DNA of 64,000 bases, taken from Candidatus Niyogibacteria bacterium. Lineage in GTDB: Bacteria; Patescibacteriota; Minisyncoccia; HO2-45-28. Shown piece by piece: positions 6,440 through 47,045 of this stretch. Numbering within the stretch: position 1 is the stretch's first letter; every line of letters begins with the position of its first letter. The translations under genes and the position numbers were made by a program. Where the stretch lies: assembly GCA_016181935.1 (NCBI GenBank), contig JACOYI010000005.1, positions 595-64,594 on the forward strand. Direction: 5' to 3'. The notes under the pieces were generated by a model. It saw nothing but the letters and a program-made list of their open reading frames with translations. It was not told where the DNA came from and searched no databases.

Positions 6440-7756
6440 ATGCGTATTTTACCGATCATCGGTGTCGGTTTCGCAATGGGCTTTTTTATTTTTGCCGTTT
6501 TTGTCGCGCGGGCGCAAACCGTGGATCCGGCGCTGGTGGGCGAGCGCAAAGCCGCGCTCGAAAAAGAGCTTGCGGGATACGAAGTTCAGATCGACGCATT
6601 CCGGCAGCAGATCGACGCCAAACGATTGGAGGCCGCAAGTTTTGAGCGCGACATTGCGATCTTGAACGCCGAGATCAAGAAAGCGCAGCTTGCCATCAAG
6701 GCGCGGACCATCGCGATCGAGCAATTATCGGACACGATCGGGGAAAAATCCGATTTCGTGGACGAATTGCTCGTAAAGATCGATCGCGAAAAAAAATCGC
6801 TCGCGGAACTCCTGCGCCGCGTGGAAGAATTGGACCGCACATCATTTGCGGAAGCGTTTTTTTCGCGCGAATCCATCGCCGGATTTTTTAAGGAATTGGA
6901 TCATTATGACACGGTGCAGGCGGCGGTTCACACGTCATTTTTGGAGATCCGGAAAACCCGAGTAGCGACCGAGGAGGAGATCGATACGCTCGAAACCCGC
7001 AAATCGGAAGAGATCGAGCTTCGCGCGCTTCAAACACTCGAAAAAAAACGCGTTGAAGAAAAGGAATCCGAGAAAAAAAAGATCCTCGCGGTCACTAAAG
7101 GCGTTGAAGCCGAATATCAAAAATTGCTGAAGTCGCGCGAAAAAGATGCGGCGCTTATTCGAAGCCAGCTCTTTTTATTGCGCGGTTCGCCGGATATTCC
7201 GTTCGAAAAGGCGGTGGAGTATGCGAATGCCGCATTCAAAGCCACGGGGGTGCGCCCCGCGTTTTTACTCGGTGTGATCGCGGAAGAGTCGAATCTGGGT
7301 GCCAATGTCGGCACGGGGAACTGGAATATCGACATGGCGGATCGCCGGTGCGCATCGCAACGCACGGCATTTCAGGAGATCACCGCTGAACTGGGATTCG
7401 ATCCGAATCTGATGCCGGTTTCCAAAAAGGCGTGGTACGGCTATTGCGGGGGCGCCATGGGGCCCGCGCAATTCATGCCGACCACATGGAAGTTATACAA
7501 AAATTTGATCGCAAAGCATACCGGCCACAACCCGCCCAATCCTTGGGAGGCGCTCGATGCATTCGTGGCGTCGGCGCTTCTGTTGAAAGATAACGGCGCG
7601 GCGGAGGGGACCTATGCAGCTGAGCGCCGCGCGGCGCTCCGGTATTTGGCAGGCGCGAACTGGCAGAAGCGCTCATATGCTTTTTACGGCGACGATGTAA
7701 TGGCGCTTGCCGCCAAGTATCAGGACCAGATGAACATCATTCTGGCGGGGCAGTAG
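6440..7756 (+). CDS. Membrane-anchored coiled-coil protein with C-terminal lytic murein transglycosylase (MltB/Slt-like) domain
   Basis: ATG at 6440; the listed ORF start at 6281 overlaps rplY and is rejected. N-terminal TM, about 250-aa heptad-rich region, then AEESNLG ... [10 protein letters not shown] transglycosylase motifs. Confidence 0.7.
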
Positions 7757-8477
7757 TTTTTGAGAATGCTTTCACGATGGGGTCGAGATCGCCCGCCATG
7801 ATGCGTTCGATCGCGTGCCACGATTTTTTGATGCGGTGGTCGGTGACGCGATCCTGCGTAAAATTGTACGTGCGGATCTTTTCCGAACGGTCCTGCGTGC
7901 CGATCTGTTCCCGGCGCACGGCGGCGACGGAATCTACGGCTTTTTCCTGATGCGCCTCCATAAGTTTGGAGCGCAAGATATCAAGGGCGCGTTCGCGGTT
8001 CCGGGCTTGAGAGCGTTCGCTTTGGGAACGCACGACGAGGCCCGTGGGTTTATGTGTGATGCGCACGGCGGTTTCGACTTTATTGACGTTTTGTCCGCCC
8101 GCGCCGCCGGAGCGCGAAAAACTGACCTCAATATCCTGGGGCCGGATTTCGAGCGCTTGGGGCGGATAGATCGGGAGCACGGCCACCGATGCGGTCGACG
8201 TATGCACGCGGCCCGATTTTTCGGTATCCGGGATGCGCTGGACCCGGTGAACGCCCGCTTCTTGTTTTAATGTCGGGTACGCATCCGGATTCGCGACCTC
8301 GATCGTGATTTCCTTGTAACCGCCGAGGTCCGAGACCGACGAATCGATCGCGGTCGCTTTCCAGCCTTTGCGGCTCGCGTATTTCATATACATCGATGCG
8401 AGGTCGCGCGCAAAAAGCGACGCTTCGGCGCCGCCAGCGCCCGCGCGGATCTCAAGAAAAATGCTTTGCGGCTGCAT
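7737..8477 (-). CDS. prfA: Peptide chain release factor 1-like protein lacking N-terminal domain 1 (246 aa)
   Basis: Starts [16 protein letters not shown] immediately after the rpmE stop. Has the PxT-type codon-recognition loop (RIPDTE) and GGQ ([16 protein letters not shown]). There is no coding room for the usual first 100 or so residues. Confidence 0.7.
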
Positions 8478-8479
8478 TG

Positions 8480-8740
8480 TTATTTTTTGGATTTTTTGCC
8501 CTTGCCGCCTGTTCTGGCGCGCGGCTGTTTCAAAGACGCCGCCCGCGCCCGTTTCGCCTTGAATTTTTCAACGCGGCCCGCCGTATCAATGAGTTTTTCC
8601 TGCCCCGTGAAGAAAGGGTGGCAGGATGCGCAAATTTCAACCTCGATCTTTTCTTTTGTGGAGCCGACCGTATAGGTTTTGCCGCATGCGCACCGGATCG
8701 TCGCATGCGGATAGTAGACGGGATGGAGATCTTTTTTCAT
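8480..8740 (-). CDS. rpmE: 50S ribosomal protein L31
   Basis: [11 protein letters not shown]...CACG...[10 protein letters not shown] matches L31 with its Zn-binding Cys pairs. The listed 135-aa ORF start is an upstream extension and is rejected. Confidence 0.85.
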
Positions 8741-8998
8741 GGAGCATAGCGTAGCACGGAGAGGCGGTATTGACAAATGTTTTGGGTAAACACATTTGGC
8801 GGTTTTGAGCGGCTCGCCGTTTGCTTTTTCAAATCGGTCGTTCGTCCTGCCAGCGCAGGACGCCGACCTGCGCTCTCGGCGCGCCAACTCCGCCTTCAGC
8901 GGAGACCGTGCTTGTCGCGCCTGCGAGAGCTTTTCAAAACCAAACGCCTCGCCGCCTTTTCAAAACCGCCAAATGCGCCCGCATATTACCGATGCGCC

Positions 8999-9794: not shown

Positions 9795-10244
9795 ATGGCG
9801 GATTTTGATATGATTCGTGAGCTCCGGGCTCGGTGCGGCGCATCGATATCGCATTGCAAGAAGGCGCTTGAAGAAACCGGGGGCGATCGGGAAAAGGCGC
9901 TTGAAGTTTTGCGTAAAGAAGGAGCGGATATTGCCGCAAAAAAAGCATCCCGCGCGACGCATGCGGGCGTTGTTGACGCGTATGTGCATGCGGACCGGCG
10001 ATTGGCCGCTCTCGTAAAAGTAAAATGCGAAACGGATTTTGTCGCGCGCAACGACGAATTCCGCGCGTTCGCGCATGACCTTGCGATGCAGGCGGCGGCG
10101 ATGGGGGCGCGAACGTCTGAAGAATTGTTGGAACAGCCGTTCATTAAAGACCCCAAAAAAACCGTACGCGACCTTGTAAAAGAGATCATCGCAAAATTCG
10201 GCGAGAACGTGGAGGTTATTTCCGTGTCGCGCCTTGAGATTTAA
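9795..10244 (+). CDS. tsf: Elongation factor Ts (short form, 149 aa)
   Basis: Directly downstream of rpsB. N-terminal UBA-like ELRARCGASISHCKKALEETGGD and TDFVARN motif. Confidence 0.85.
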   Translation: MADFDMIRELRARCGASISHCKKALEETGGDREKALEVLRKEGADIAAKKASRATHAGVVDAYVHADRRLAALVKVKCETDFVARNDEFRAFAHDLAMQAAAMGARTSEELLEQPFIKDPKKTVRDLVKEIIAKFGENVEVISVSRLEI

Positions 10245-28667: not shown

Positions 28668-28840
28668 CGTTGATTCACTGTAGGTTGTTTTATGCTGCTC
28701 GACAAGTTTTTATCGGCTTGCCAGAGCTGACATGCTCTGGTGTGCTTTCGAATTTCATATGTTTCCACTTTACCATCTTCGGAGTGTATTCCTACAATGG
28801 GTTAGAAATCGGCAGTGCGAACTTTGACAAGGATCGAATC

Positions 28841-31426
28841 ATGGACACTCCGAGACAGGCGAGAAAAAAGATCGCGCTTCGTAGGAGAATCCGGCAATTC
28901 AGAAAAGAGCCACGGTTCCTGCGAGAGCCGAAAGCGAAGCCGTTGGCGCAAAAGATCGCAACATCAGACCTTTCGCCATCCGAGATCACAGAGCTCGTCG
29001 GACGCCCCTATGGGTATTTTCATGAGGCGCTCCGGCATCACAGCATCAAAAAGCCGCGGCATTCTCCGCGCCATATCACGTGGTCGGATGATGCGCTTCG
29101 TTATATCGTGGAAGGTTTTCAGCTGAGCCAGAGTTATTTCCGCTACAAGGCCGAAGATCGCGCGAATATCCAAAATCTCAAAGAAACAGTGATCAATATG
29201 GTCGCCCGTATTCAGAAAAAAACAGGTGAGCGCGGGAAGGTCACATGGGATGCCATTCGGCTTGCCGCAGGCCGCCTGAATGCGGACGATCTGAAGCGTA
29301 TCGGACGCGAAAAAGCGCCGCTTCCGCTCGTGTGGACGAATCTGAAAAAGCCGGAAAAAGAAAAAGCGCCGTTCTCGCCGCCTCCGGTGCCGGTGCGGCG
29401 GTGGTCGGAACCGGAAGAACTTGTGATGGATGCGGCGCAATTTGCGAAAGCAGGATTTCGCATCGGCTTCGCTTCGCGCATCGACTGGCGTTCCGCCGGA
29501 TTTCGCGCGGCCGAGCTGTTGCGCGGCGCAGAAATTTTCTGCAGCGAGGGATGCCAATTTTTCGTCATCAATGCGGGGCTGGTCCACAAGCAGTGGGCCA
29601 AAGGATTCATCAGCGAACACTTCGCCGGCCTCTCGAGGGACCGGCGCGAAGGCGCGCTGGATGTGGCGTTGGACGAGATCGCGCGCGGGCTTGCATTCGC
29701 GATCCCGCGAGTTCCGCATCCGACCGAAAAAGGGAAATTCATCAAGTGGTACATCATTCCGAGCACCCAGCACGACGGCCCGTTCGGGGAACGCATCGCG
29801 CAAAAACTGCAGGCGCTGCGGTCGGAAGATATCCGTGTTCATGATCCGCGGAGAGGGCCCTTGATCGTGAAAGCGATCAACAAGCGCATCGGCATCGTGA
29901 ATGCGCATCGGAATCGCTTGCCGTCGGAGTATCATTCGAACGCCGCTGAGCGCGACATCAAGGATTTTGAAACGCTGACGGCGCGGGACGACTACGATAT
30001 TTATGCGGTGGGCGGCCATGCGTCGAGCATCCATAATCCCCGCGGCGGCGAGCGCAAGACCCCGTATTTTACGATCCCCGCTCTGCATCGCCTCCAGGGC
30101 GACAAGGTCGCGGAAAATCAGGAGGGCGTTACCATTCTCGAATGGTCGCCGGATGGCTCCATCTATTCGTTGCGGGTGTTTCCGCTTCGGGATTGGAGCC
30201 GTGACGAGCGGATGTGCATCACCGGCACCAAGGAAGGCGCAAAGCGTATTCACCACCGGATCGTGGACGTCATCAAACGTACGGGTGCGGTCACGATCGG
30301 CATGCTGGAGGACGCGCTCGATATTTCACGCGATGTCTTGGAACGGGAGATCCAGTTTTTGGTCGAGCCGAAACCGCTGCCGCGTAAGACGTGGCCGGGT
30401 TTGCGGTACGATCCCGCGTCGCAGACCTACGATTTTTGGCTGGAATGGATCCAGGAAACCCTGCGGTACCCGAAATTGCAGAAAACCTGGGATGAGCACC
30501 GGATGCTCATGTTCGGTTGTCTCCATGCGGGGTACTGTACGACGGATTACGAATATTTCGTGAAAAAGTATCCCGAGATCATTCTGGCCCGCGGCGTCCA
30601 AACGCTCTTCGGCATCGGCGATTTCATCGCGGGTCTCCATCACGATTTTCTCTGCACCGGCGAAGTGTTCGGCGGGCTGAACAACGACGAACAGGAAACA
30701 TTCGCCGCAGAACTCACGGCGACCGTGATGCTCGCGGTATTCCGTGTCCGGTTCAGGGATATCATAGATGCGGTGCGTCCGTCGGACGCCGCGGGTATCG
30801 CATCCTGCGTCAGCCGGGCGCTTTTGGATTTTATTTACACCATCGGAAATCACGACGAGTGGCAGAGGCGCGACGGTTCGACCCCGCTCGAAACATTCCG
30901 GAGCAAATTGTGTACGGTCCTTACCGATCACATCGGGAAGATCGCCGATGGCGCCGAGGCGGTTGATATCGCCGGTATCGTGCGTTCGAAGATCACGCTC
31001 GTGCCGCAACACCGGCCGCACTATCGGTTTTCGTCGGGATCGGTGATGGGTTTGCACCATCCGTTCATGGCGAGGGCGAAGACGTCATCGCTCCGCGCGC
31101 AGGAACTGCTGAAATTTTTGCGCGAATGCCATCTGGTGGGCGCTGCGAATTTCCATACGTCGATCTTCGCGAATAGCTGGGAACCGTCGCTCGGCCAGCG
31201 ACTTGTGGCGCAGGTCGGGACGATGGTCATCGGCACGACCTTTGAAATGGGCAAAATGAAGCGCGTGGATTTCGGCCCGTTGTATGTGCGCGTCCGCGAG
31301 CAAAACGGGCGCATCATCATGACCGAAACCATGGCGTTTCCGGACCCGATCTTGCGTGACCCGATCCCGAAGGGGACGGATCCCGAAGAGTTGAAAGCGC
31401 GCCTCGGTCTGTTGCGGGCGCGATAG
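28841..31426 (+). CDS. Large hypothetical protein (861 aa) with weak metallophosphoesterase-like motifs in its C-terminal half
   Basis: ATG 28841; the upstream part of the listed ORF lacks coding character. No confident domain. GIGDFIAGLHHD ... IGNHDEW are reminiscent of calcineurin-like phosphoesterase motifs II/III (low confidence). Ends 85 nt before lon. Confidence 0.65.
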   Translation: MDTPRQARKKIALRRRIRQFRKEPRFLREPKAKPLAQKIATSDLSPSEITELVGRPYGYFHEALRHHSIKKPRHSPRHITWSDDALRYIVEGFQLSQSYFRYKAEDRANIQNLKETVINMVARIQKKTGERGKVTWDAIRLAAGRLNADDLKRIGREKAPLPLVWTNLKKPEKEKAPFSPPPVPVRRWSEPEELVMDAAQFAKAGFRIGFASRIDWRSAGFRAAELLRGAEIFCSEGCQFFVINAGLVHKQWAKGFISEHFAGLSRDRREGALDVALDEIARGLAFAIPRVPHPTEKGKFIKWYIIPSTQHDGPFGERIAQKLQALRSEDIRVHDPRRGPLIVKAINKRIGIVNAHRNRLPSEYHSNAAERDIKDFETLTARDDYDIYAVGGHASSIHNPRGGERKTPYFTIPALHRLQGDKVAENQEGVTILEWSPDGSIYSLRVFPLRDWSRDERMCITGTKEGAKRIHHRIVDVIKRTGAVTIGMLEDALDISRDVLEREIQFLVEPKPLPRKTWPGLRYDPASQTYDFWLEWIQETLRYPKLQKTWDEHRMLMFGCLHAGYCTTDYEYFVKKYPEIILARGVQTLFGIGDFIAGLHHDFLCTGEVFGGLNNDEQETFAAELTATVMLAVFRVRFRDIIDAVRPSDAAGIASCVSRALLDFIYTIGNHDEWQRRDGSTPLETFRSKLCTVLTDHIGKIADGAEAVDIAGIVRSKITLVPQHRPHYRFSSGSVMGLHHPFMARAKTSSLRAQELLKFLRECHLVGAANFHTSIFANSWEPSLGQRLVAQVGTMVIGTTFEMGKMKRVDFGPLYVRVREQNGRIIMTETMAFPDPILRDPIPKGTDPEELKARLGLLRAR

Positions 31427-38631: not shown

Positions 38632-39231
38632 CTAGTAAATATAGGTTGTAATGCTTGCTTCTGCAATTTCTTTCATGTGCTCAAAAAGTTCATTTTCCTG
38701 CCATGCGTTTTCTCTGAAAAACATTGATACGGGAGCGTATCCTTCTTTCTTGTGTATAAAAATACGATTCAATGGATAAAATTCATTCATCGTGATAACT
38801 CGATCTCGAATGGATGAACCCTCTGCAAAATCATCGCCCCATCCGAAGCAAACGAATGGCGTGATTTTTTCATATTGAAGTGTGGCTCGGATACCGATAA
38901 GATTTTTTCCCAATCGTTCAATCGCATTTCCTTGCGATTGCTTTTTTAAGCCCTCGGCGATTCGCTTCTTGTTCGTGCCCTGATGTTTCATCTCAACCGC
39001 AAGTGCGATTCTTCGATAGTTTTCATCGTCTTTTTTTCGTAATACCAAAATGCCGCCGTCCGGTTTTATGTAAGAGTCCTCTTTTGAGAGCGGAGAAAAC
39101 TCCGCCCGCTTGTCATATCCTTTGATAATTCCGATCAGTTCCGACAATTTGATGGATTTTACATATTCGAGATAGTAGCCAAGATTCGCAAGGTTAAAAC
39201 GGGTATTGAGATGCTCAATGACCCTTTTCAT
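38632..39231 (-). CDS. Putative Type II restriction endonuclease (PD-(D/E)xK)
   Basis: IKPDGGILVL...EMKHQG fits PD...ExK. Immediately downstream of, and co-directional with, the methyltransferase. Start taken at the internal ATG (MKRVIEHLN). Confidence 0.5.
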   Translation of the reverse strand: MKRVIEHLNTRFNLANLGYYLEYVKSIKLSELIGIIKGYDKRAEFSPLSKEDSYIKPDGGILVLRKKDDENYRRIALAVEMKHQGTNKKRIAEGLKKQSQGNAIERLGKNLIGIRATLQYEKITPFVCFGWGDDFAEGSSIRDRVITMNEFYPLNRIFIHKKEGYAPVSMFFRENAWQENELFEHMKEIAEASITTYIY

Positions 39232-39274
39232 CACCGCCGAAACCTTTTTGTCATCGCCCTTGGAAAGGACGTTT

Positions 39275-39952
39275 TTAGGCAAATGCTGGCTTTTGTTTCG
39301 GCGCAAGAAGTCGCTGTTGCTCATTATGGATATTTTTTACGAAATAATGGCCGCCCAGTTTTGGGATGTTGAAAATCAATACCTCGCTATGAAAGAGGAT
39401 GTTTTCAAAAACATCTTTTGGAAGCGATACGATGCTCGTAATGGGCGGATATTCTTCGTTGATAAATTTCACCCAGCGTTTGCTGTTTTCCGTCTGATTG
39501 AGGCGGAAGCCGTAAGGCGTGAACATCACGATGGGGACTTCACTGCCAAACAATTTCACTGCCTTTGCGAACCACACTTCGGGGAGCAAAGGACGACCGC
39601 CATAATGCTCTTTGATATACTGCTTTGTTTTCGAGTCAATGTTAAAAGGCGGATTCATAATGACGAGCGATATTTTTTCTTTTATCTCGTCCTTTTGAAT
39701 TTCCAAATAATTTTTAACTTTCGTGTTTGGAAAACCCTGATGTTCAATATCAATGCCCATTACTGCATAGCCGTCTTTTTTCCACGGCTTCAAAAGAGAA
39801 CCTTCTCCCACGCACGGATCAATGACGATTCCATCCGATTTTTTGATGTGCGGATGAATCAGATCGTAAAGAAATTCGCTTACATAATCGGGAGTGAAAA
39901 TCGTTGCTTTTTTCTCGTTTTTATAGAAATTGTTCCGATCTACCCGATACAT
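39275..39952 (-). CDS. N6-adenine DNA methyltransferase (gamma-class, NPPF motif)
   Basis: ATG 39952 (MYRVDRNNF); the listed start 39979 is a TTG. Motif I VIDPCVGEGSLL and motif IV VIMNPPFN. Confidence 0.8.
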   Translation of the reverse strand: MYRVDRNNFYKNEKKATIFTPDYVSEFLYDLIHPHIKKSDGIVIDPCVGEGSLLKPWKKDGYAVMGIDIEHQGFPNTKVKNYLEIQKDEIKEKISLVIMNPPFNIDSKTKQYIKEHYGGRPLLPEVWFAKAVKLFGSEVPIVMFTPYGFRLNQTENSKRWVKFINEEYPPITSIVSLPKDVFENILFHSEVLIFNIPKLGGHYFVKNIHNEQQRLLAPKQKPAFA

Positions 39953-40068: not shown

Positions 40069-40944
40069 TCAAACGGGCATCACAGCCCGTCCGAGAATGG
40101 AAGAAAACATCGGGCGCGAAACCAGACGCTGATTCCAGCGATACACGAATTCGTCCACATAACGCTGGAGATACTTCGGGGATACGGCATGGTGCGTCCC
40201 GTCCAGCGACCGCTTGAGTTGCGACCAAAAGCCCTCGATGGTGTTTGTATGTATTTTGCCACGCACATACTCCTTGATGCCGTGTTGGATGGTCTCGTGG
40301 CTGTATCCGTTTGAGCCGACCCGATTGTAGGATTTGAACTCGTCTGTAAAGATTATGCTTTGTTTGCGGACGGATTGCTGGATGATGGGCATGATGGTTT
40401 TACTTTTTACATTCTCAACAACTCGCGCTTTCACATTTCCTTTGCGGGATGCGATACCGAATACGGGCGTTTTGTGTTCTGCCCCGCGTCCGCGCTTGTT
40501 GTGCTTGCCCTTACCGCCGACATAGGTTTCATCCGCTTCCACCTCGCCGTAAAATTTGATGTTATTCTGCTCAAAGAGAAGCCGGATTTGCTGACCCATC
40601 CGCCACGCGCATTTATAGGTCATGCCGAGTTGCCGTTCCAATTCTTTCGCCGCGACACCATTCCGGCTTGAAGCGAACAAGAAGATAGCCCAGAACCAAT
40701 CTTTTAAGGATGTGTCCGATTTGTGGAAGATTGTGCCCGCGAGCGGATGGACGCTAAATCCGCATTGGCAATCGTATCGCTTGCGTCCGGCAATCCGGTG
40801 GAACTTTCCGCGCTTCTTGCACGATGGACAGGCATACCGCTTGCCATAGCGATTCAAAAAGATAGAATGAAGGCAGGCCTCATTGGTCGGGTAATCCCTT
40901 TCGAAATCCTTGCGCGTGTATTTTTTCATACCCCATCCTATCAA
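40069..40944 (-). CDS. IS1595-family (ISXO2-like) DDE transposase
   Basis: 291 aa. N-terminal zinc ribbon (CPSCKK..C), then a DDE core with DETYVGG, TDEFKSY and a C-terminal ISXO2-type region (VNRF). Confidence 0.85.
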   Translation of the reverse strand: MIGWGMKKYTRKDFERDYPTNEACLHSIFLNRYGKRYACPSCKKRGKFHRIAGRKRYDCQCGFSVHPLAGTIFHKSDTSLKDWFWAIFLFASSRNGVAAKELERQLGMTYKCAWRMGQQIRLLFEQNNIKFYGEVEADETYVGGKGKHNKRGRGAEHKTPVFGIASRKGNVKARVVENVKSKTIMPIIQQSVRKQSIIFTDEFKSYNRVGSNGYSHETIQHGIKEYVRGKIHTNTIEGFWSQLKRSLDGTHHAVSPKYLQRYVDEFVYRWNQRLVSRPMFSSILGRAVMPV

Positions 40945-42672: not shown

Positions 42673-44436
42673 ATGAAGGCGGACGAGCTTCGGCTGAAAT
42701 TTCTCGAATTTTTCAAGAATCGGGGGCACGCCGTCGTGCCGTCGAGTCCGCTCGTACCCGATGATCCGTCGGTGCTTCTGACCACGGCGGGGATGCAGCA
42801 ATTCAAGCCGTACTACACGGGCGATGCCGACCCGATGAAGGACTTCGGTGCGAAAAACACAGCATCGGTCCAGAAGTGTTTCCGCGCCTCGGATATCGAT
42901 GAAGTGGGCGATGCAAGCCATCTGACATTTTTTGAAATGCTCGGCAATTTCAGTTTTGGCGGGTATTTCAAGGAAGACGCCATCCGCTGGGCGCACCAGT
43001 TCGTGACCAAGGAACTCGGCCTGAAGATCGACTATGTGACGGTTTTTGGCGGCACCGACACCGCGGGGCAGGCGATTCCGTCTGACACCGAGTCCGAACG
43101 GCTTTGGAAAGAAATGGACCCGGCGCTCGACGTGCATGTGCGGGGAATGGATGAGAATTTCTGGGGACCGACGGGCAAAGAAGGTCCCTGCGGGCCAACC
43201 ACGGAAATTTACGTGGGCGGTGTCGAGATTTGGAATATCGTATTCAACGAGTTTTTTTATCACGGGACGCGCGAGGAATTGCTCGCAGGCGCCGCAGGGA
43301 AGACATTGAAGCCGCTTAAAACCCCCGGGGTGGATACAGGCGCGGGGTTCGAGCGCATTGCGGTTGCGGTCCAAAAAAAAGAGCATGTTTTCCAAACGGA
43401 CCTGTTCGCGTCCGTAACGGCGCTTTTACCGCGCGATTTAGAAGAGCGCGCGCGCCGCATTATCGCGGACCATTTGCGCGCGAGCGCGTTTTTACTGGCC
43501 GACGGGGTACGGCCGTCCAACAAAGAAGCAGGATACGTCTTGCGGCGCATTCTTCGCCGCGCGCTGGCGTTCGAGCATATGCACGAAATGCCGGCCGGTA
43601 TTTTTGAAGATATTTTGACGGCCGTCATCCGGCAGTACGGCGGCTTTTATCCGGAACTGGAGCGCGAACGCGACGCGATGCTCGACGCGTATCGGGTGGA
43701 ACGCGAACGATTCGCGCATACGCTTTCCGCGGGTATCAAGGAATTGAATCGGCAGGGCGGCACGATCGACGCGAAAGGAGGTTTTCATTTGTATGAAAGT
43801 TACGGACTCCCGTACGAGGTCATCCGCGAGGTCGGCGGCGAGCGGGCGCGCGGTCTCACGCGCGACGCGTTCGATGCCGAATTCAAAAAACATCAAGACA
43901 AGTCGCGCGAGGGCGCCGAAAAAAAATTCGGCGGGCACGGATTGATCCTCGATACGGGCGAGCTGAAAGCCGCGACCGAGGAAGAGGTCAAAAAAGTGAC
44001 CCGTCTTCATACGGCAACGCATTTATTGCAATCGGCGCTCCGGAAGATCTTGGATCCGGATGTCCGGCAAATGGGTTCGGATATCACGTACATGCGAACA
44101 CGATTTGATTTTTCGTTTGCACGAAAACTCACGCCGGAGGAATTGAAGCGCGTCGAGGATGAGGTCAACGATATTATCCGCGCGGACCACCCTGTTACAA
44201 TGAAAGAAATGGACTATGAAGATGCCGTCGCATCGGGTGCGCTTTATTTTTTCCGCGAAAAATATCCCAAGCGCGTGAAAGTGTATACGGTGGGAACGGA
44301 CGACGTATTCTTCTCGCGCGAATTTTGCGGAGGGCCGCATGTGTCGCGCACGGGGGAGATCGGCGAGTTCCGGATTAAAAAAGAGGAGGCGGTCGCGTCG
44401 GGGGTCCGGCGGATTCGCGCCGTTGTCGAGCCCTAA
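42673..44436 (+). CDS. alaS: Alanyl-tRNA synthetase, short form (catalytic + tRNA-binding + editing domains, no C-Ala/DHHA1 domain)
   Basis: 587 aa. Class II motifs (FFEMLGNFSFGGYFKEDAI), editing-domain HTATHLL ... CGGPHV. Ends right after the editing domain. Confidence 0.85.
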   Translation: MKADELRLKFLEFFKNRGHAVVPSSPLVPDDPSVLLTTAGMQQFKPYYTGDADPMKDFGAKNTASVQKCFRASDIDEVGDASHLTFFEMLGNFSFGGYFKEDAIRWAHQFVTKELGLKIDYVTVFGGTDTAGQAIPSDTESERLWKEMDPALDVHVRGMDENFWGPTGKEGPCGPTTEIYVGGVEIWNIVFNEFFYHGTREELLAGAAGKTLKPLKTPGVDTGAGFERIAVAVQKKEHVFQTDLFASVTALLPRDLEERARRIIADHLRASAFLLADGVRPSNKEAGYVLRRILRRALAFEHMHEMPAGIFEDILTAVIRQYGGFYPELERERDAMLDAYRVERERFAHTLSAGIKELNRQGGTIDAKGGFHLYESYGLPYEVIREVGGERARGLTRDAFDAEFKKHQDKSREGAEKKFGGHGLILDTGELKAATEEEVKKVTRLHTATHLLQSALRKILDPDVRQMGSDITYMRTRFDFSFARKLTPEELKRVEDEVNDIIRADHPVTMKEMDYEDAVASGALYFFREKYPKRVKVYTVGTDDVFFSREFCGGPHVSRTGEIGEFRIKKEEAVASGVRRIRAVVEP

Positions 44437-45602
44437 TGGCGAAATTTTCGTCATCGCGGCCGCTTTTGGTTCTGGATGTCGGGAGTTCGGGCGTACACGC
44501 GGCCGTTGCCACACGAAACGCAAAGGGAGTTATTGATATCGAGCGGGTCGCACGCTCTCATCCGTTGGTTTTGCCGGAGGTGAATCTTAAAAAATTGTGG
44601 AAGAAGCTCCATGCGATGGCGGCGGACGTCGTCGGCGACCTGCGCAAAAGCGGGTCCCGGCCGCATTCGGCGGTCGTGATCTTCTCATCGCCGTGGTATT
44701 TTTCCGAAGTGCGGAGATTTACGCATGTGTCGGAAACGGCCGTGGAGATCACCGGAAAACTTCTGGATACGTTCATGGCGGAGGAGGAGGAGCGGTTTCG
44801 CGTCGGCGCGCTTGAACGGTTCCATGTGGCGGCGGACGAAGTGCTGATTTTGGAGCCCGTGCGCATGCGCGCGCTTTTGAACGGCTATCCGGCGGACTCT
44901 ATTGTCGGAAAGCGCGCCCAAGCGATCGAGGCCTTTATCTATTTATCCGCCGTATTCGGCCGTGCAAAGAGCGATATAAAAACCCTCCTGGCCGATAACG
45001 GCATCCGGCTCGCCGGCGTCCAGACGTCGCCGATGGCGCTGTATCGGACCGCCCAAGCGCTTGGCATTGCGGACGAAGGCAGGGTCGTTATCGATATCGG
45101 CGGGGAGATCACCGAGGTTTCTCTCATTAAAAACGGGATTCTTCATGACAGCGTTTCCTATGCCCGAGGCCTGAATTTTGCGGCGCGGCGCGTGGCTGAA
45201 GCGTTATCATTCGACGCAGAGGCGGCGATCGTGTATTTGCAGAATTATGGCGCGAGGGCGCTCGAAAACGGCAAAGCGGCCCGCGCAAAAAAAATCGTGC
45301 GCGATGCGGTTGACGAATGGAAGGCGCTTCTGGAAGATGCGTTCGAGCATCTGTCAGGGAAGGGGTTGTTGCCGGAAATAGCGCTTCTTGCGGGACCGGG
45401 CGGAATCCTTGCGGAATTCGCGACGGCGCTCGGTGTCGATGAATTCCGGCGTTTTACGATCTTCGGACGCCCGTTCACCGTTGAACAACTGACGCTCGAT
45501 CGCTTTGCGGATCGGTTCACGCATATCCCGTCCGTTTTTTCGAATGCGGAGCTCACGAATCTTTTGGTCGATATTTTGTACAGCTTTACGCGGAATCCAT
45601 GA
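44436..45602 (+). CDS. Actin-fold ATPase-like protein (FtsA/PilM-like), hypothetical
   Basis: 388 aa. LVLDVGSSGVHAA and VIDIGGEITEVSL resemble phosphate-1/phosphate-2 loops of FtsA/PilM/MreB-type ATPases. Weak. Confidence 0.5.
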   Translation: MAKFSSSRPLLVLDVGSSGVHAAVATRNAKGVIDIERVARSHPLVLPEVNLKKLWKKLHAMAADVVGDLRKSGSRPHSAVVIFSSPWYFSEVRRFTHVSETAVEITGKLLDTFMAEEEERFRVGALERFHVAADEVLILEPVRMRALLNGYPADSIVGKRAQAIEAFIYLSAVFGRAKSDIKTLLADNGIRLAGVQTSPMALYRTAQALGIADEGRVVIDIGGEITEVSLIKNGILHDSVSYARGLNFAARRVAEALSFDAEAAIVYLQNYGARALENGKAARAKKIVRDAVDEWKALLEDAFEHLSGKGLLPEIALLAGPGGILAEFATALGVDEFRRFTIFGRPFTVEQLTLDRFADRFTHIPSVFSNAELTNLLVDILYSFTRNP

Positions 45603-45698: not shown

Positions 45699-47045
45699 AT
45701 GGAATCGCCGAATGAAAAAAAAGTTCCGGTCCGCGATATCATGCCCAATGTCTCCGCAAATGTGCGGAGCGATCACTCTGTGGAATCTTCCGGATCCGCC
45801 TCTGAATTGCCTCGGCGGGCGCGTGCGTCAAGGGCGGAGTTTTTCGCGCGAAAACCCGAACGTCTGCCTGCTTCAGATATGCTAGAAACCCCTCGCCGAT
45901 GGGGCTGGATGGGGGGATTCCGCTTTCCGTGGAAGATCACGGCCGCAAGCATCGGATTTCTTGCGGCGGCGGGGCTTGCGGTCAGCGCTTTTTCAAAGAC
46001 CGTGGTCATCATTACGCCGCGTGCCGAACAGGTCGCTGTCGTCATGACAGTATCGGTCGGCGGATCCGCGGGCCTTGCCGCTCAAGTAGCGAGCGCGGAG
46101 GAAACTCTCAGCATGCGCGCCAAATCGAGCGGAATGGAGGATATTTCGGAACGCGCCACCGGCCGCATTCTTATCTATAACGCGTATAGCGCCCTACCTC
46201 AGGCGCTTGTCCGCCGGACGCGGTTTGAAACTGCGGATGGCAAGGTGTATCGCCTCACCGAGGCCGTTACCGTTCCGGGCGCAACGGTCCTCGATGGGAA
46301 GATCGAACCGAGTTTTGTGGAAGCCGCCGTCGCCGCCGATCTGGCGGGCGAGGCCTCGAACATCGGGATCACGGATTTTACGATCCCCGGATTCAAAGGG
46401 GGCGCAAAATACGAAAAATTTTATGCGCATTCCAAAACGCCGATGACCGGCGGTTTTGCGGGAAGAACCGCCGTTATTCGGGAAGAAGATGTCCAGAACG
46501 CAAAACAATCGCTTGAGCGCGATCTGAAAAATACACTGACAACGCGTTTGAATGAGCGTTTGGGGCAGGGGTTGATCATTCCGGCGGATGCGGCCACCTA
46601 TACGATCGCCGTTTCTTCCGTGGAACCTGCGATCGGAGAACGCGGCGATGCCTTTGATATCCGCGTCACCGGCCAGGCGGCGGCGCTGGCGGTCCGGCGG
46701 CAAGATTTGGAAAAACAATTGCTGGAGCGGTACGGAAAAACCGCACTCCTGTCTCATCCGGAGATCCGCAACTTCGGCGACCTTGCGGTCCGCGCAACAG
46801 CGTCCGACCCCGTAAAAAAGGCGATGACGCTTTCCGTGACGGGCGATATGCAGTTGGTGTGGGGCGTGTCCATGGATGAATTAAAGAAAGGACTCCTGTC
46901 TGCGGCGGGCGTTGCGGGGCGCAACGCGGTTTTCGCTTCCTATCCCCAGATCGAGCGGGTCCGCGTTTCCTACCGGCCGAGCTGGTGGCGGATTTTTCCC
47001 CGATCCGAAGATAAGATCGTCGTGGAGGAGGATCTGGAACTCTAG
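45699..47045 (+). CDS. Hypothetical membrane-anchored protein (448 aa)
   Basis: Single TM (ITAASIGFLAAAGLAVSAF) after a charged N-terminus. Large extracytoplasmic domain with no recognised motifs. Confidence 0.55.
   Translation: MESPNEKKVPVRDIMPNVSANVRSDHSVESSGSASELPRRARASRAEFFARKPERLPASDMLETPRRWGWMGGFRFPWKITAASIGFLAAAGLAVSAFSKTVVIITPRAEQVAVVMTVSVGGSAGLAAQVASAEETLSMRAKSSGMEDISERATGRILIYNAYSALPQALVRRTRFETADGKVYRLTEAVTVPGATVLDGKIEPSFVEAAVAADLAGEASNIGITDFTIPGFKGGAKYEKFYAHSKTPMTGGFAGRTAVIREEDVQNAKQSLERDLKNTLTTRLNERLGQGLIIPADAATYTIAVSSVEPAIGERGDAFDIRVTGQAAALAVRRQDLEKQLLERYGKTALLSHPEIRNFGDLAVRATASDPVKKAMTLSVTGDMQLVWGVSMDELKKGLLSAAGVAGRNAVFASYPQIERVRVSYRPSWWRIFPRSEDKIVVEEDLEL

Follow-up and report, generated by a model that had tools for sequence, protein, structure and literature searches.

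A release factor 1 without domain 1 encoded behind rpmE in Niyogibacteria and related Patescibacteria

The window analysed here, a stretch of 64,000 nucleotides (nt) from a Candidatus Niyogibacteria bacterium (assembly GCA_016181935.1, contig JACOYI010000005.1, positions 595 to 64,594), contains a gene for release factor 1 (RF1, gene prfA) whose product of 246 amino acids (aa) lacks the N-terminal domain 1. The gene lies directly behind rpmE, which encodes ribosomal protein L31 (Table 1). Reading the junction base by base, the rpmE stop codon TAA (8482-8480) is followed by CA and then by the ATG of the release factor gene (8477-8475), and the two genes are probably co-transcribed and translationally coupled. 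Upstream of this ATG, the nearest stop in the release factor frame is 30 codons away, and the intervening stretch contains neither ATG nor GTG nor TTG and overlaps the coding sequence of rpmE, so that an N-terminal domain of about 105 aa cannot be encoded at the locus. A preliminary description of this DNA had reported the same length, the same 2-nt distance between the rpmE stop and the ATG, and the lack of upstream coding room for domain 1, all of which were borne out by the sequence reading and by the analysis of open reading frames (ORFs) and their phases. At the opposite end, the short prfA and a convergent gene with an SLT_2 domain (lytic transglycosylase-like) overlap in their 3' ends by 20 nt (7737-7756).

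Table 1. Coordinates of the short RF1 gene, its diagnostic codons and the preceding gene, in positions of the window.
Feature	Coordinates	Strand	Basis
Probable prfA orthologue, RF1 of 246 aa with domains 2, 3 and 4 and without domain 1; stop codon TGA	7737..8477	-	ORF; Pfam, NCBIfam and PDB alignments; AlphaFold (AF2) model
Start codon ATG of the short RF1, 2 nt 3' of the rpmE stop	8475..8477	-	Read from the sequence; first ATG/GTG/TTG past the in-frame stop
Codons of G15-G16-A17-E18, tip of helix alpha-5	8424..8435	-	101-residue offset from PDB alignment; G15, G16 and E18 invariant (n=73)
P83-D84-T85, RF1-type PxT 'tripeptide anticodon'	8223..8231	-	Reverse complement CCG GAT ACC
G127-G128-Q129, catalytic GGQ motif	8091..8099	-	Reverse complement GGC GGA CAA
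rpmE (ribosomal protein L31), directly upstream of prfA	8480..8743	-	PF01197, 94.8 bits; NCBIfam match

Profile searches assign the protein to the RF1 family and place the deletion at its N-terminus. In Pfam, the PCRF family (PF03462, 145.6 bits) is matched only over profile positions 100-194 of 194, and the RF-1 domain (PF00472, 132.3 bits) is matched completely, from position 5 to 116 of 116; the short RF1 therefore contains the PCRF codon-recognition domain with the RF-1 (GGQ) domain inserted in it. One NCBIfam RF1 model reaches 352.6 bits (E = 2e-105) over profile positions 104-340 of 347, against 236.3 bits for the RF2 model, 76.2 for PrfH and 51 for ArfB, while a second RF1 model gives 338.8 bits, aligned from position 112 of 361. 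The margin of the RF1 models over the RF2 model exceeds 100 bits in the window protein and in eight relatives, in keeping with the RF1-type assignment made in the preliminary description. Alignment with structures in the PDB pairs residues 4-240 with residues 105-341 of Thermus thermophilus RF1, without net gaps, and residues 4-237 with residues 109-343 of Escherichia coli RF1; the start had previously been placed at the equivalent of about residue 108 of the latter.

The residues on which stop codon reading and catalysis depend are retained. An alignment of 73 domain-1-less sequences has a mean column identity of 68% and 69 invariant columns, among them G15, G16, E18, Q80, P83, T85, H92, T93 and the G127-G128-Q129 motif. 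D84, the middle residue of the PxT motif, is not invariant in these 73 short homologues, and the switch-loop segment of 14 residues is largely conserved among them. With the offset of 101 residues given by the PDB alignment, the equivalents in T. thermophilus RF1 are G116 (G15), E119 (E18), Q181 (Q80), P184 (P83), T186 (T85), H193 (H92) and T194 (T93). We take the alpha-5 tip of T. thermophilus RF1, G116-E119, to read U1 of the stop codon, and the equivalents of Q80, H92 and T93 are presumably the residues that read bases 2 and 3. The list of stop-codon-reading residues is reportedly that of the Laurberg 2008 structure, and every residue on it is among the invariant columns. Both the P-x-T codon-recognition loop and the intact GGQ motif, already noted in the preliminary description, could be read directly in the DNA.

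The AF2 model of the short RF1 has a mean predicted local distance difference test score (pLDDT) of 81.3 and a predicted template modelling score (pTM) of 0.68. It superimposes on ribosome-bound RF1 of T. thermophilus and E. coli with template modelling (TM) scores of 0.86-0.87 and a root-mean-square deviation of 2.6-2.7 Å over 241 columns, and on the closed crystal forms of RF1 with TM scores of about 0.60. In ribosome complexes domain 1 is often left unmodelled, as in PDB chains of 242-259 residues. Because domains 2 and 4 and the GGQ domain 3 are kept, binding to the A site at UAA and UAG and hydrolysis of peptidyl-tRNA are to be expected. Judging from sequence and predicted fold, the short protein is thus most likely a working UAA/UAG release factor that would be unable to couple to RF3.

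The architecture is not peculiar to this contig. We sampled 80 metagenome loci and 80 loci from species-representative genomes and measured in each how far the frame extends upstream from the conserved core. The arrangement of rpmE followed by a short RF1 is present in a complete Niyogibacteria genome of 836,981 bp (CP066691.1), where the protein again has 246 aa and its start overlaps the rpmE stop as TAATG, as well as in two Logan assemblies, a 524-kb contig from the Joint Genome Institute (JGI) and a European Nucleotide Archive contig of a Ryanbacteria relative; the order rpmE-prfA recurs in L001, L005, L007 and many further loci. An in-frame stop was found 0-42 codons 5' of the start in 26 of the 27 related domain-1-less loci that were checked. 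The exception, L121, has 77 open codons upstream, but these overlap rpmE. Across lineages prfA follows rpmE at distances of -1 to 436 nt and in any of the three frames, yet the start point of the protein is constant, and many domain-1-less loci have no rpmE directly upstream. Most of the best protein-database matches (98 of 120) are 231-255 aa long. Altogether, the domain-1-less clade spans Niyogi-, Ryan-, Jorgensen- and Liptonbacteria and further Patescibacteria, including a complete chromosome of 829 kb (OY970354.1).

Gene order ties the short form to full-length RF1. A full-length Parcubacteria RF1 of 344 aa (P0048) is encoded in the same neighbourhood as that of the window and of CP066691.1, where the pair rpmE-prfA is flanked on one side by the divergent genes tsf and rpsB and on the other by the convergent genes for the SLT_2-domain protein and L25. 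Since full-length P0048 sits in the same syntenic slot, the short form can be regarded as a prfA orthologue. We are fairly confident that the gene is the ordinary prfA of this organism, orthologous by position to full-length RF1, and that it has lost the three-helix domain 1 at its N-terminus. The order rpmE-prfA is also found in Cyanobacteria (L138, L146, L148, L157 and L162), so the linkage is ancient and not specific to the truncated form.

A neighbour-joining (NJ) tree of 152 distinct sequences, computed on the core common to all of them, placed all 23 distinct sequences with an N-terminal extension of at most 3 aa in one clade of 26. The remaining three members carry tails of 16-21 aa that are not domain 1, and the sequences of its sister group are full-length, their cores being preceded by 100 and 104 aa. 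Representatives of clusters at 50% identity did not resolve the truncated group, RF1 being too conserved at this level. The preliminary description had asked whether the truncation is lineage-wide, and the tree answers that it is, with the truncated forms monophyletic across the relatives. On this sequence-based evidence, the deletion of domain 1 is best read as a single event in the ancestor of the clade of Niyogi-, Ryan-, Jorgensen- and Liptonbacteria.

Complete loss of domain 1 concludes a reduction that is seen more widely in Parcubacteria, most of whose RF1s have a domain 1 about 30 aa shorter than that of other phyla. Outside Patescibacteria, all loci with a complete and unambiguous start have 99-136 aa before the core, mostly 103-113 (Cyanobacteria, Bacteroidota and Ignavibacteria included). 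The form most frequent in Parcubacteria, in which about 72-90 aa precede the core, makes up a second clade of the NJ tree (n=49); for one protein of this class of about 74 aa, P0086, the match to the RF1 profile starts only at about position 40. Five members of the same clade are cut further, to 15-47 aa (L043, L038, L104, L013 and L110). We read these truncations in five lineages of the 74-aa class as independent of one another. RF1s with a short domain 1 of 72-90 aa were encountered among loci L012-L134, e.g. in L109 (RAAC4_OD1_1) and L102, besides P0086. Within the domain-1-less RF1s, a subgroup of 276-279 aa (P0030, P0036, P0049 and P0063) begins with about 30 conserved residues, MSDxxNQPYDWxQWQxYxxPK, which are unrelated to domain 1.

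Among the alternatives, the one that survives best is that the short protein is a specialised paralogue, RF-H-like or of the rescue type, in a genome that encodes a full-length prfA elsewhere; we consider this improbable. RF-H also lacks domain 1 (PMC1586002; PMC6514570), and our searches covered the window and the fetched loci. However, the PrfH model scores 76.2 bits where its cut-off is 166.65 (TIGR03072), and the PrfH structure 9mor matches with 58 bits as against about 257 for RF1. Moreover, the annotated neighbourhoods contain no RtcB neighbour and the upstream gene is rpmE, the PxT motif and all decoding residues of RF1 are invariant whereas the decoding region of RF-H differs from that of other release factors, and the gene occupies the slot that holds full-length prfA in sister lineages. 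No genome appears twice among the 80 genome loci listed, although this is a weak point. An RF-H-like copy, named in the preliminary description as a finding that would overturn the assignment, thus fails both on the PrfH score and on the RtcB neighbour. The short gene is also, as had been stated there, the only release factor gene of the window, in which tblastn with the short RF1 detected no second one, and it would presumably be the sole RF1 of the organism.

Stop codon usage bears on the remainder of the termination machinery. The 34 Pfam-supported genes of the window end in TAA (16), TGA (13) and TAG (5), and the TGA-terminated ones include the short prfA itself, which agrees with the earlier observation that TGA serves as a stop here. 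Because TGA ends 13 of the 34 genes, the standard code is in use and some UGA-reading activity must exist, and it is reasonable to assume a separate RF2 for this codon. A tblastn search with an E. coli RF2 sequence yielded no second release factor gene in the Parcubacteria and Patescibacteria loci within the 2.1 Mb that were fetched; the only additional match, in L088, is a fragment of a non-CPR (Candidate Phyla Radiation) RF2. With an RF2-hallmark peptide as query, the database gave nothing but fragments of 99-160 aa, in a search whose matches seem to stay near the query in length, and two of these, on long contigs, are error-fragmented RF2 genes of non-CPR bacteria. The gene for L11, sought near RF1 as a possible case of co-evolution, was absent from the fetched Patescibacteria loci.

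That domain 1 persists as a separate small protein, encoded elsewhere and associating with the short RF1, had been raised in the preliminary description, and we regard such a split gene as very improbable. Domain 1 evolves fast, which limits the sensitivity of any search for it, and a diverged stand-alone copy would be hard to detect. A hidden Markov model (HMM) built on 57 Parcubacteria N-domains nevertheless found, within this limited sensitivity, no domain 1 in the six-frame ORFs of the window and 30 short-RF1 loci (433 kb), except for the leftover N-terminal tail of the RF1 gene of L043 itself. A database search with an alignment of 25 N-domains, likewise of limited power, returned 31 short proteins, ten of which were read, eight of them picked for their longer contigs, and no stand-alone domain 1 was among these ten. 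Nine continue into the EVRAGAGG core and so represent 5' portions of ordinary RF1 genes. In the tenth, P0398, the sequence departs from RF1 close to the end, as a frameshifted copy would. In the two contexts that were inspected, the fragment derives from a frameshift-split gene (L170) and from a gene cut by the end of the contig (L171). The split in L170 (5001-5985, JGI Ga0247842_10001166) divides an RF1 of the 74-aa class into overlapping ORFs of 89 and 252 aa inside the GAGG motif; occurring in one contig only, it probably reflects faulty assembly and not a genuinely split gene. Further, the intermediate remnants of 15-47 aa suggest decay and not relocation. Of the two alternatives left in the preliminary description, a minimal RF1 is thus favoured by monophyly, synteny and invariant residues, while a domain 1 encoded elsewhere did not turn up in searches of limited power.

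We give practically no weight to an artefact or pseudogene, i.e. a mis-assembly or frameshift at the rpmE junction or a decaying gene. The source is indeed a metagenome-assembled genome, and the related contig L170 does carry a frameshift-split RF1. However, five independent assemblies and more than 25 distinct lineages show this architecture, the frame is uninterrupted and the sequences are conserved to the degree given above, and the start of the protein remains the same in spite of the variable distance and phase to rpmE; the five assemblies alone contradict the mis-assembly or frameshift that the preliminary description had held open for the junction. A fusion in which a -1 frameshift in the A-rich 3' end of rpmE joins L31 to RF1, so that L31 takes the place of domain 1, was rejected as next to impossible. 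In its favour, the release factor lies in the -1 frame with respect to rpmE, this frame is open over the 30 codons before the start, and two AAAAAA runs lie near the rpmE 3' end. Against it, a slippery heptamer of the form X XXY YYZ is lacking in the required phase, neither frame relation nor spacing is conserved across the clade, and many of its members lack rpmE directly upstream.

If the gene is the ordinary prfA without its domain 1, the short RF1 would bind the A site at UAA or UAG and hydrolyse peptidyl-tRNA like any RF1. Lacking domain 1, it would make no contacts to the L11/L7-L12 stalk region or to the class-II factor RF3, and its exit from the ribosome would then be spontaneous or driven by recycling factors. 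Experimental precedents are compatible with such a course. As stated by Baranov et al. 2006 (PMC1586002) with reference to Mora et al. 2003 and one other study, codon recognition and peptide release in vitro do not require domain 1, engineered RF1 without it functions in vivo, and stimulation of nucleotide exchange on RF3 depends on it. RF3 is itself non-essential and missing from small genomes (PMC1586002). In E. coli, RF1 requires RF3 to dissociate, while RF2 leaves spontaneously (Adio 2018).

Several observations weigh against regarding the short protein as a normal RF1 deprived of domain 1. As E. coli RF1 needs RF3 to leave, an RF1 unable to use RF3 must differ kinetically; no substitutions specific to the short clade were found, and the differences from other phyla are common to the 74-aa class too. 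The protein scores below both equivalog cut-offs of the NCBIfam RF1 models (NF001859 / TIGR00019), with 352.6 bits against 400 and 338.8 against 423.25, and it departs in two formal respects from RF1 membership, domain 1 and the equivalog score. The shortfall corresponds to about the contribution expected from the missing 100 residues. The NJ tree was computed without support values on roughly 240 well-conserved positions, for which reason a single loss is the best reading and not proven. For RF2 and RF3, no member of the clade has yielded a gene or evidence that it is missing, the argument against a further full-length prfA is drawn only from gene order and phylogeny, and the short RF1 is known from sequence alone. 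The full-length Parcubacteria RF1 P0048 also remains just below the RF1 equivalog cut-off (395.8 against 400). NCBI names such proteins 'PCRF domain-containing protein', among them a deposited Niyogibacteria entry identical to the protein of the window, and this generic name extends across the group because even a full-length Parcubacteria RF1 falls below the cut-off.

A more far-reaching possibility is that termination was rewired throughout the clade, with no RF3, possibly a truncated RF2, and a domain-1 deletion that lets RF1 exit unaided. We put this forward tentatively and hold it to be somewhat less probable than its opposite. It is attractive to suppose that, once domain 1 is removed, affinity drops so far that RF3 is no longer needed, and that prfC might be missing from these lineages. 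If so, the series from about 105 to about 74, to 15-47 and finally to 0 aa would record how RF3-coupled recycling was dismantled stepwise in a lineage of free-standing bacteria, and a link to the loss of RF3 or to a matching truncation of RF2 would make the case of greater interest.

The deletion would imply that domain 1, held to be standard in bacterial RF1 and RF2, is dispensable in nature, and it supports the view of this domain as a late, dispensable add-on for RF3-assisted recycling. The clade might thus offer a natural system for studying RF3-independent termination and a minimal termination machinery, alongside the other ribosome reductions of CPR bacteria. There is also a practical side. 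TIGR00019 is probably used in marker-gene sets. Automated pipelines may score prfA as absent in these genomes, the proteins being under the curated RF1 thresholds.

The rest of the window (G+C content 53.6%) has a gene content typical of Parcubacteria and CPR bacteria, with glycolytic enzymes, a Suf cluster, chaperones and several short housekeeping proteins. Elongation factor EF-Ts (9795-10244, +) has 149 aa with one PF00889 match and is of equal length in the Niyogibacteria and Ryanbacteria loci L001 and L004, so that its shortening appears to be lineage-wide. Alanyl-tRNA synthetase (42673-44436, +; 587 aa) consists of the catalytic domain and tRNA_SAD, without the usual C-terminal region. 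A gene for an EcoRI-like restriction endonuclease (38632-39324, -) lies near one for an IS1595-family transposase (40069-40944, -), and the pair may represent a mobile insertion in an otherwise housekeeping region. Three large ORFs have no Pfam match: 28670-31426 (+, 918 aa), 44436-45602 (+, 388 aa) and 45699-47045 (+, 448 aa).

Release factors that lack domain 1 are known, although of other kinds. A 2019 survey of release-factor architectures names only RF-H and factors of the ArfB/ICT1/MRPS35 type as being without it (PMC6514570), and a domain-1-less RF1 was not described in the literature that we searched on CPR and Patescibacteria release factors, a search to which most subscription journals were outside scope. 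ArfB, ICT1 and mtRF-R have a GGQ domain and neither domain 1 nor a codon-recognition domain, whereas the short RF1 keeps a complete codon-recognition domain; the ArfB model matches it over residues 107-141 only, at 51 bits with a cut-off of 100. PrfH/RF-H (TIGR03072; 9mor) retains a codon-recognition-like domain and a GGQ domain and lacks domain 1. However, RF-H is an RF2 derivative whose decoding region is altered, and its gene invariably has an RtcB-family gene upstream, while the short RF1 keeps the decoding residues of RF1.

There is close likeness to canonical RF1 (PrfA), whose domains 2-4 align end to end with the short protein at 45-48% identity (T. thermophilus and E. coli, structural alignment). 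The two have in common the PxT motif, the alpha-5 tip, the GGQ motif, the switch-loop region, the linkage to rpmE and the ribosome-bound fold, the latter as predicted by the model; they differ in that the short RF1 lacks the helical domain, about 105 aa at the N-terminus, through which canonical RF1 contacts RF3 and the L11 stalk. An intermediate state of reduction is represented by the Parcubacteria RF1s with a domain 1 of about 74 aa (P0086, L109), which belong to the same family, show the same rpmE-prfA linkage and are 57-66% identical to the short form; they keep roughly two thirds of domain 1, the short form none. Likewise, the engineered E. coli RF1 and RF2 without domain 1 (Mora et al. 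2003, as described in passages of PMC1586002 and PMC6514570) consist of domains 2-4 only. According to these accounts, such constructs release peptides in vitro and do not stimulate nucleotide exchange on RF3. Yet the constructs are laboratory deletions in an organism that possesses RF3, while the deletion described here is natural, fixed and clade-wide, and a housekeeping RF1 that lacks domain 1 throughout a clade would be the natural counterpart of the deletion experiments in E. coli.

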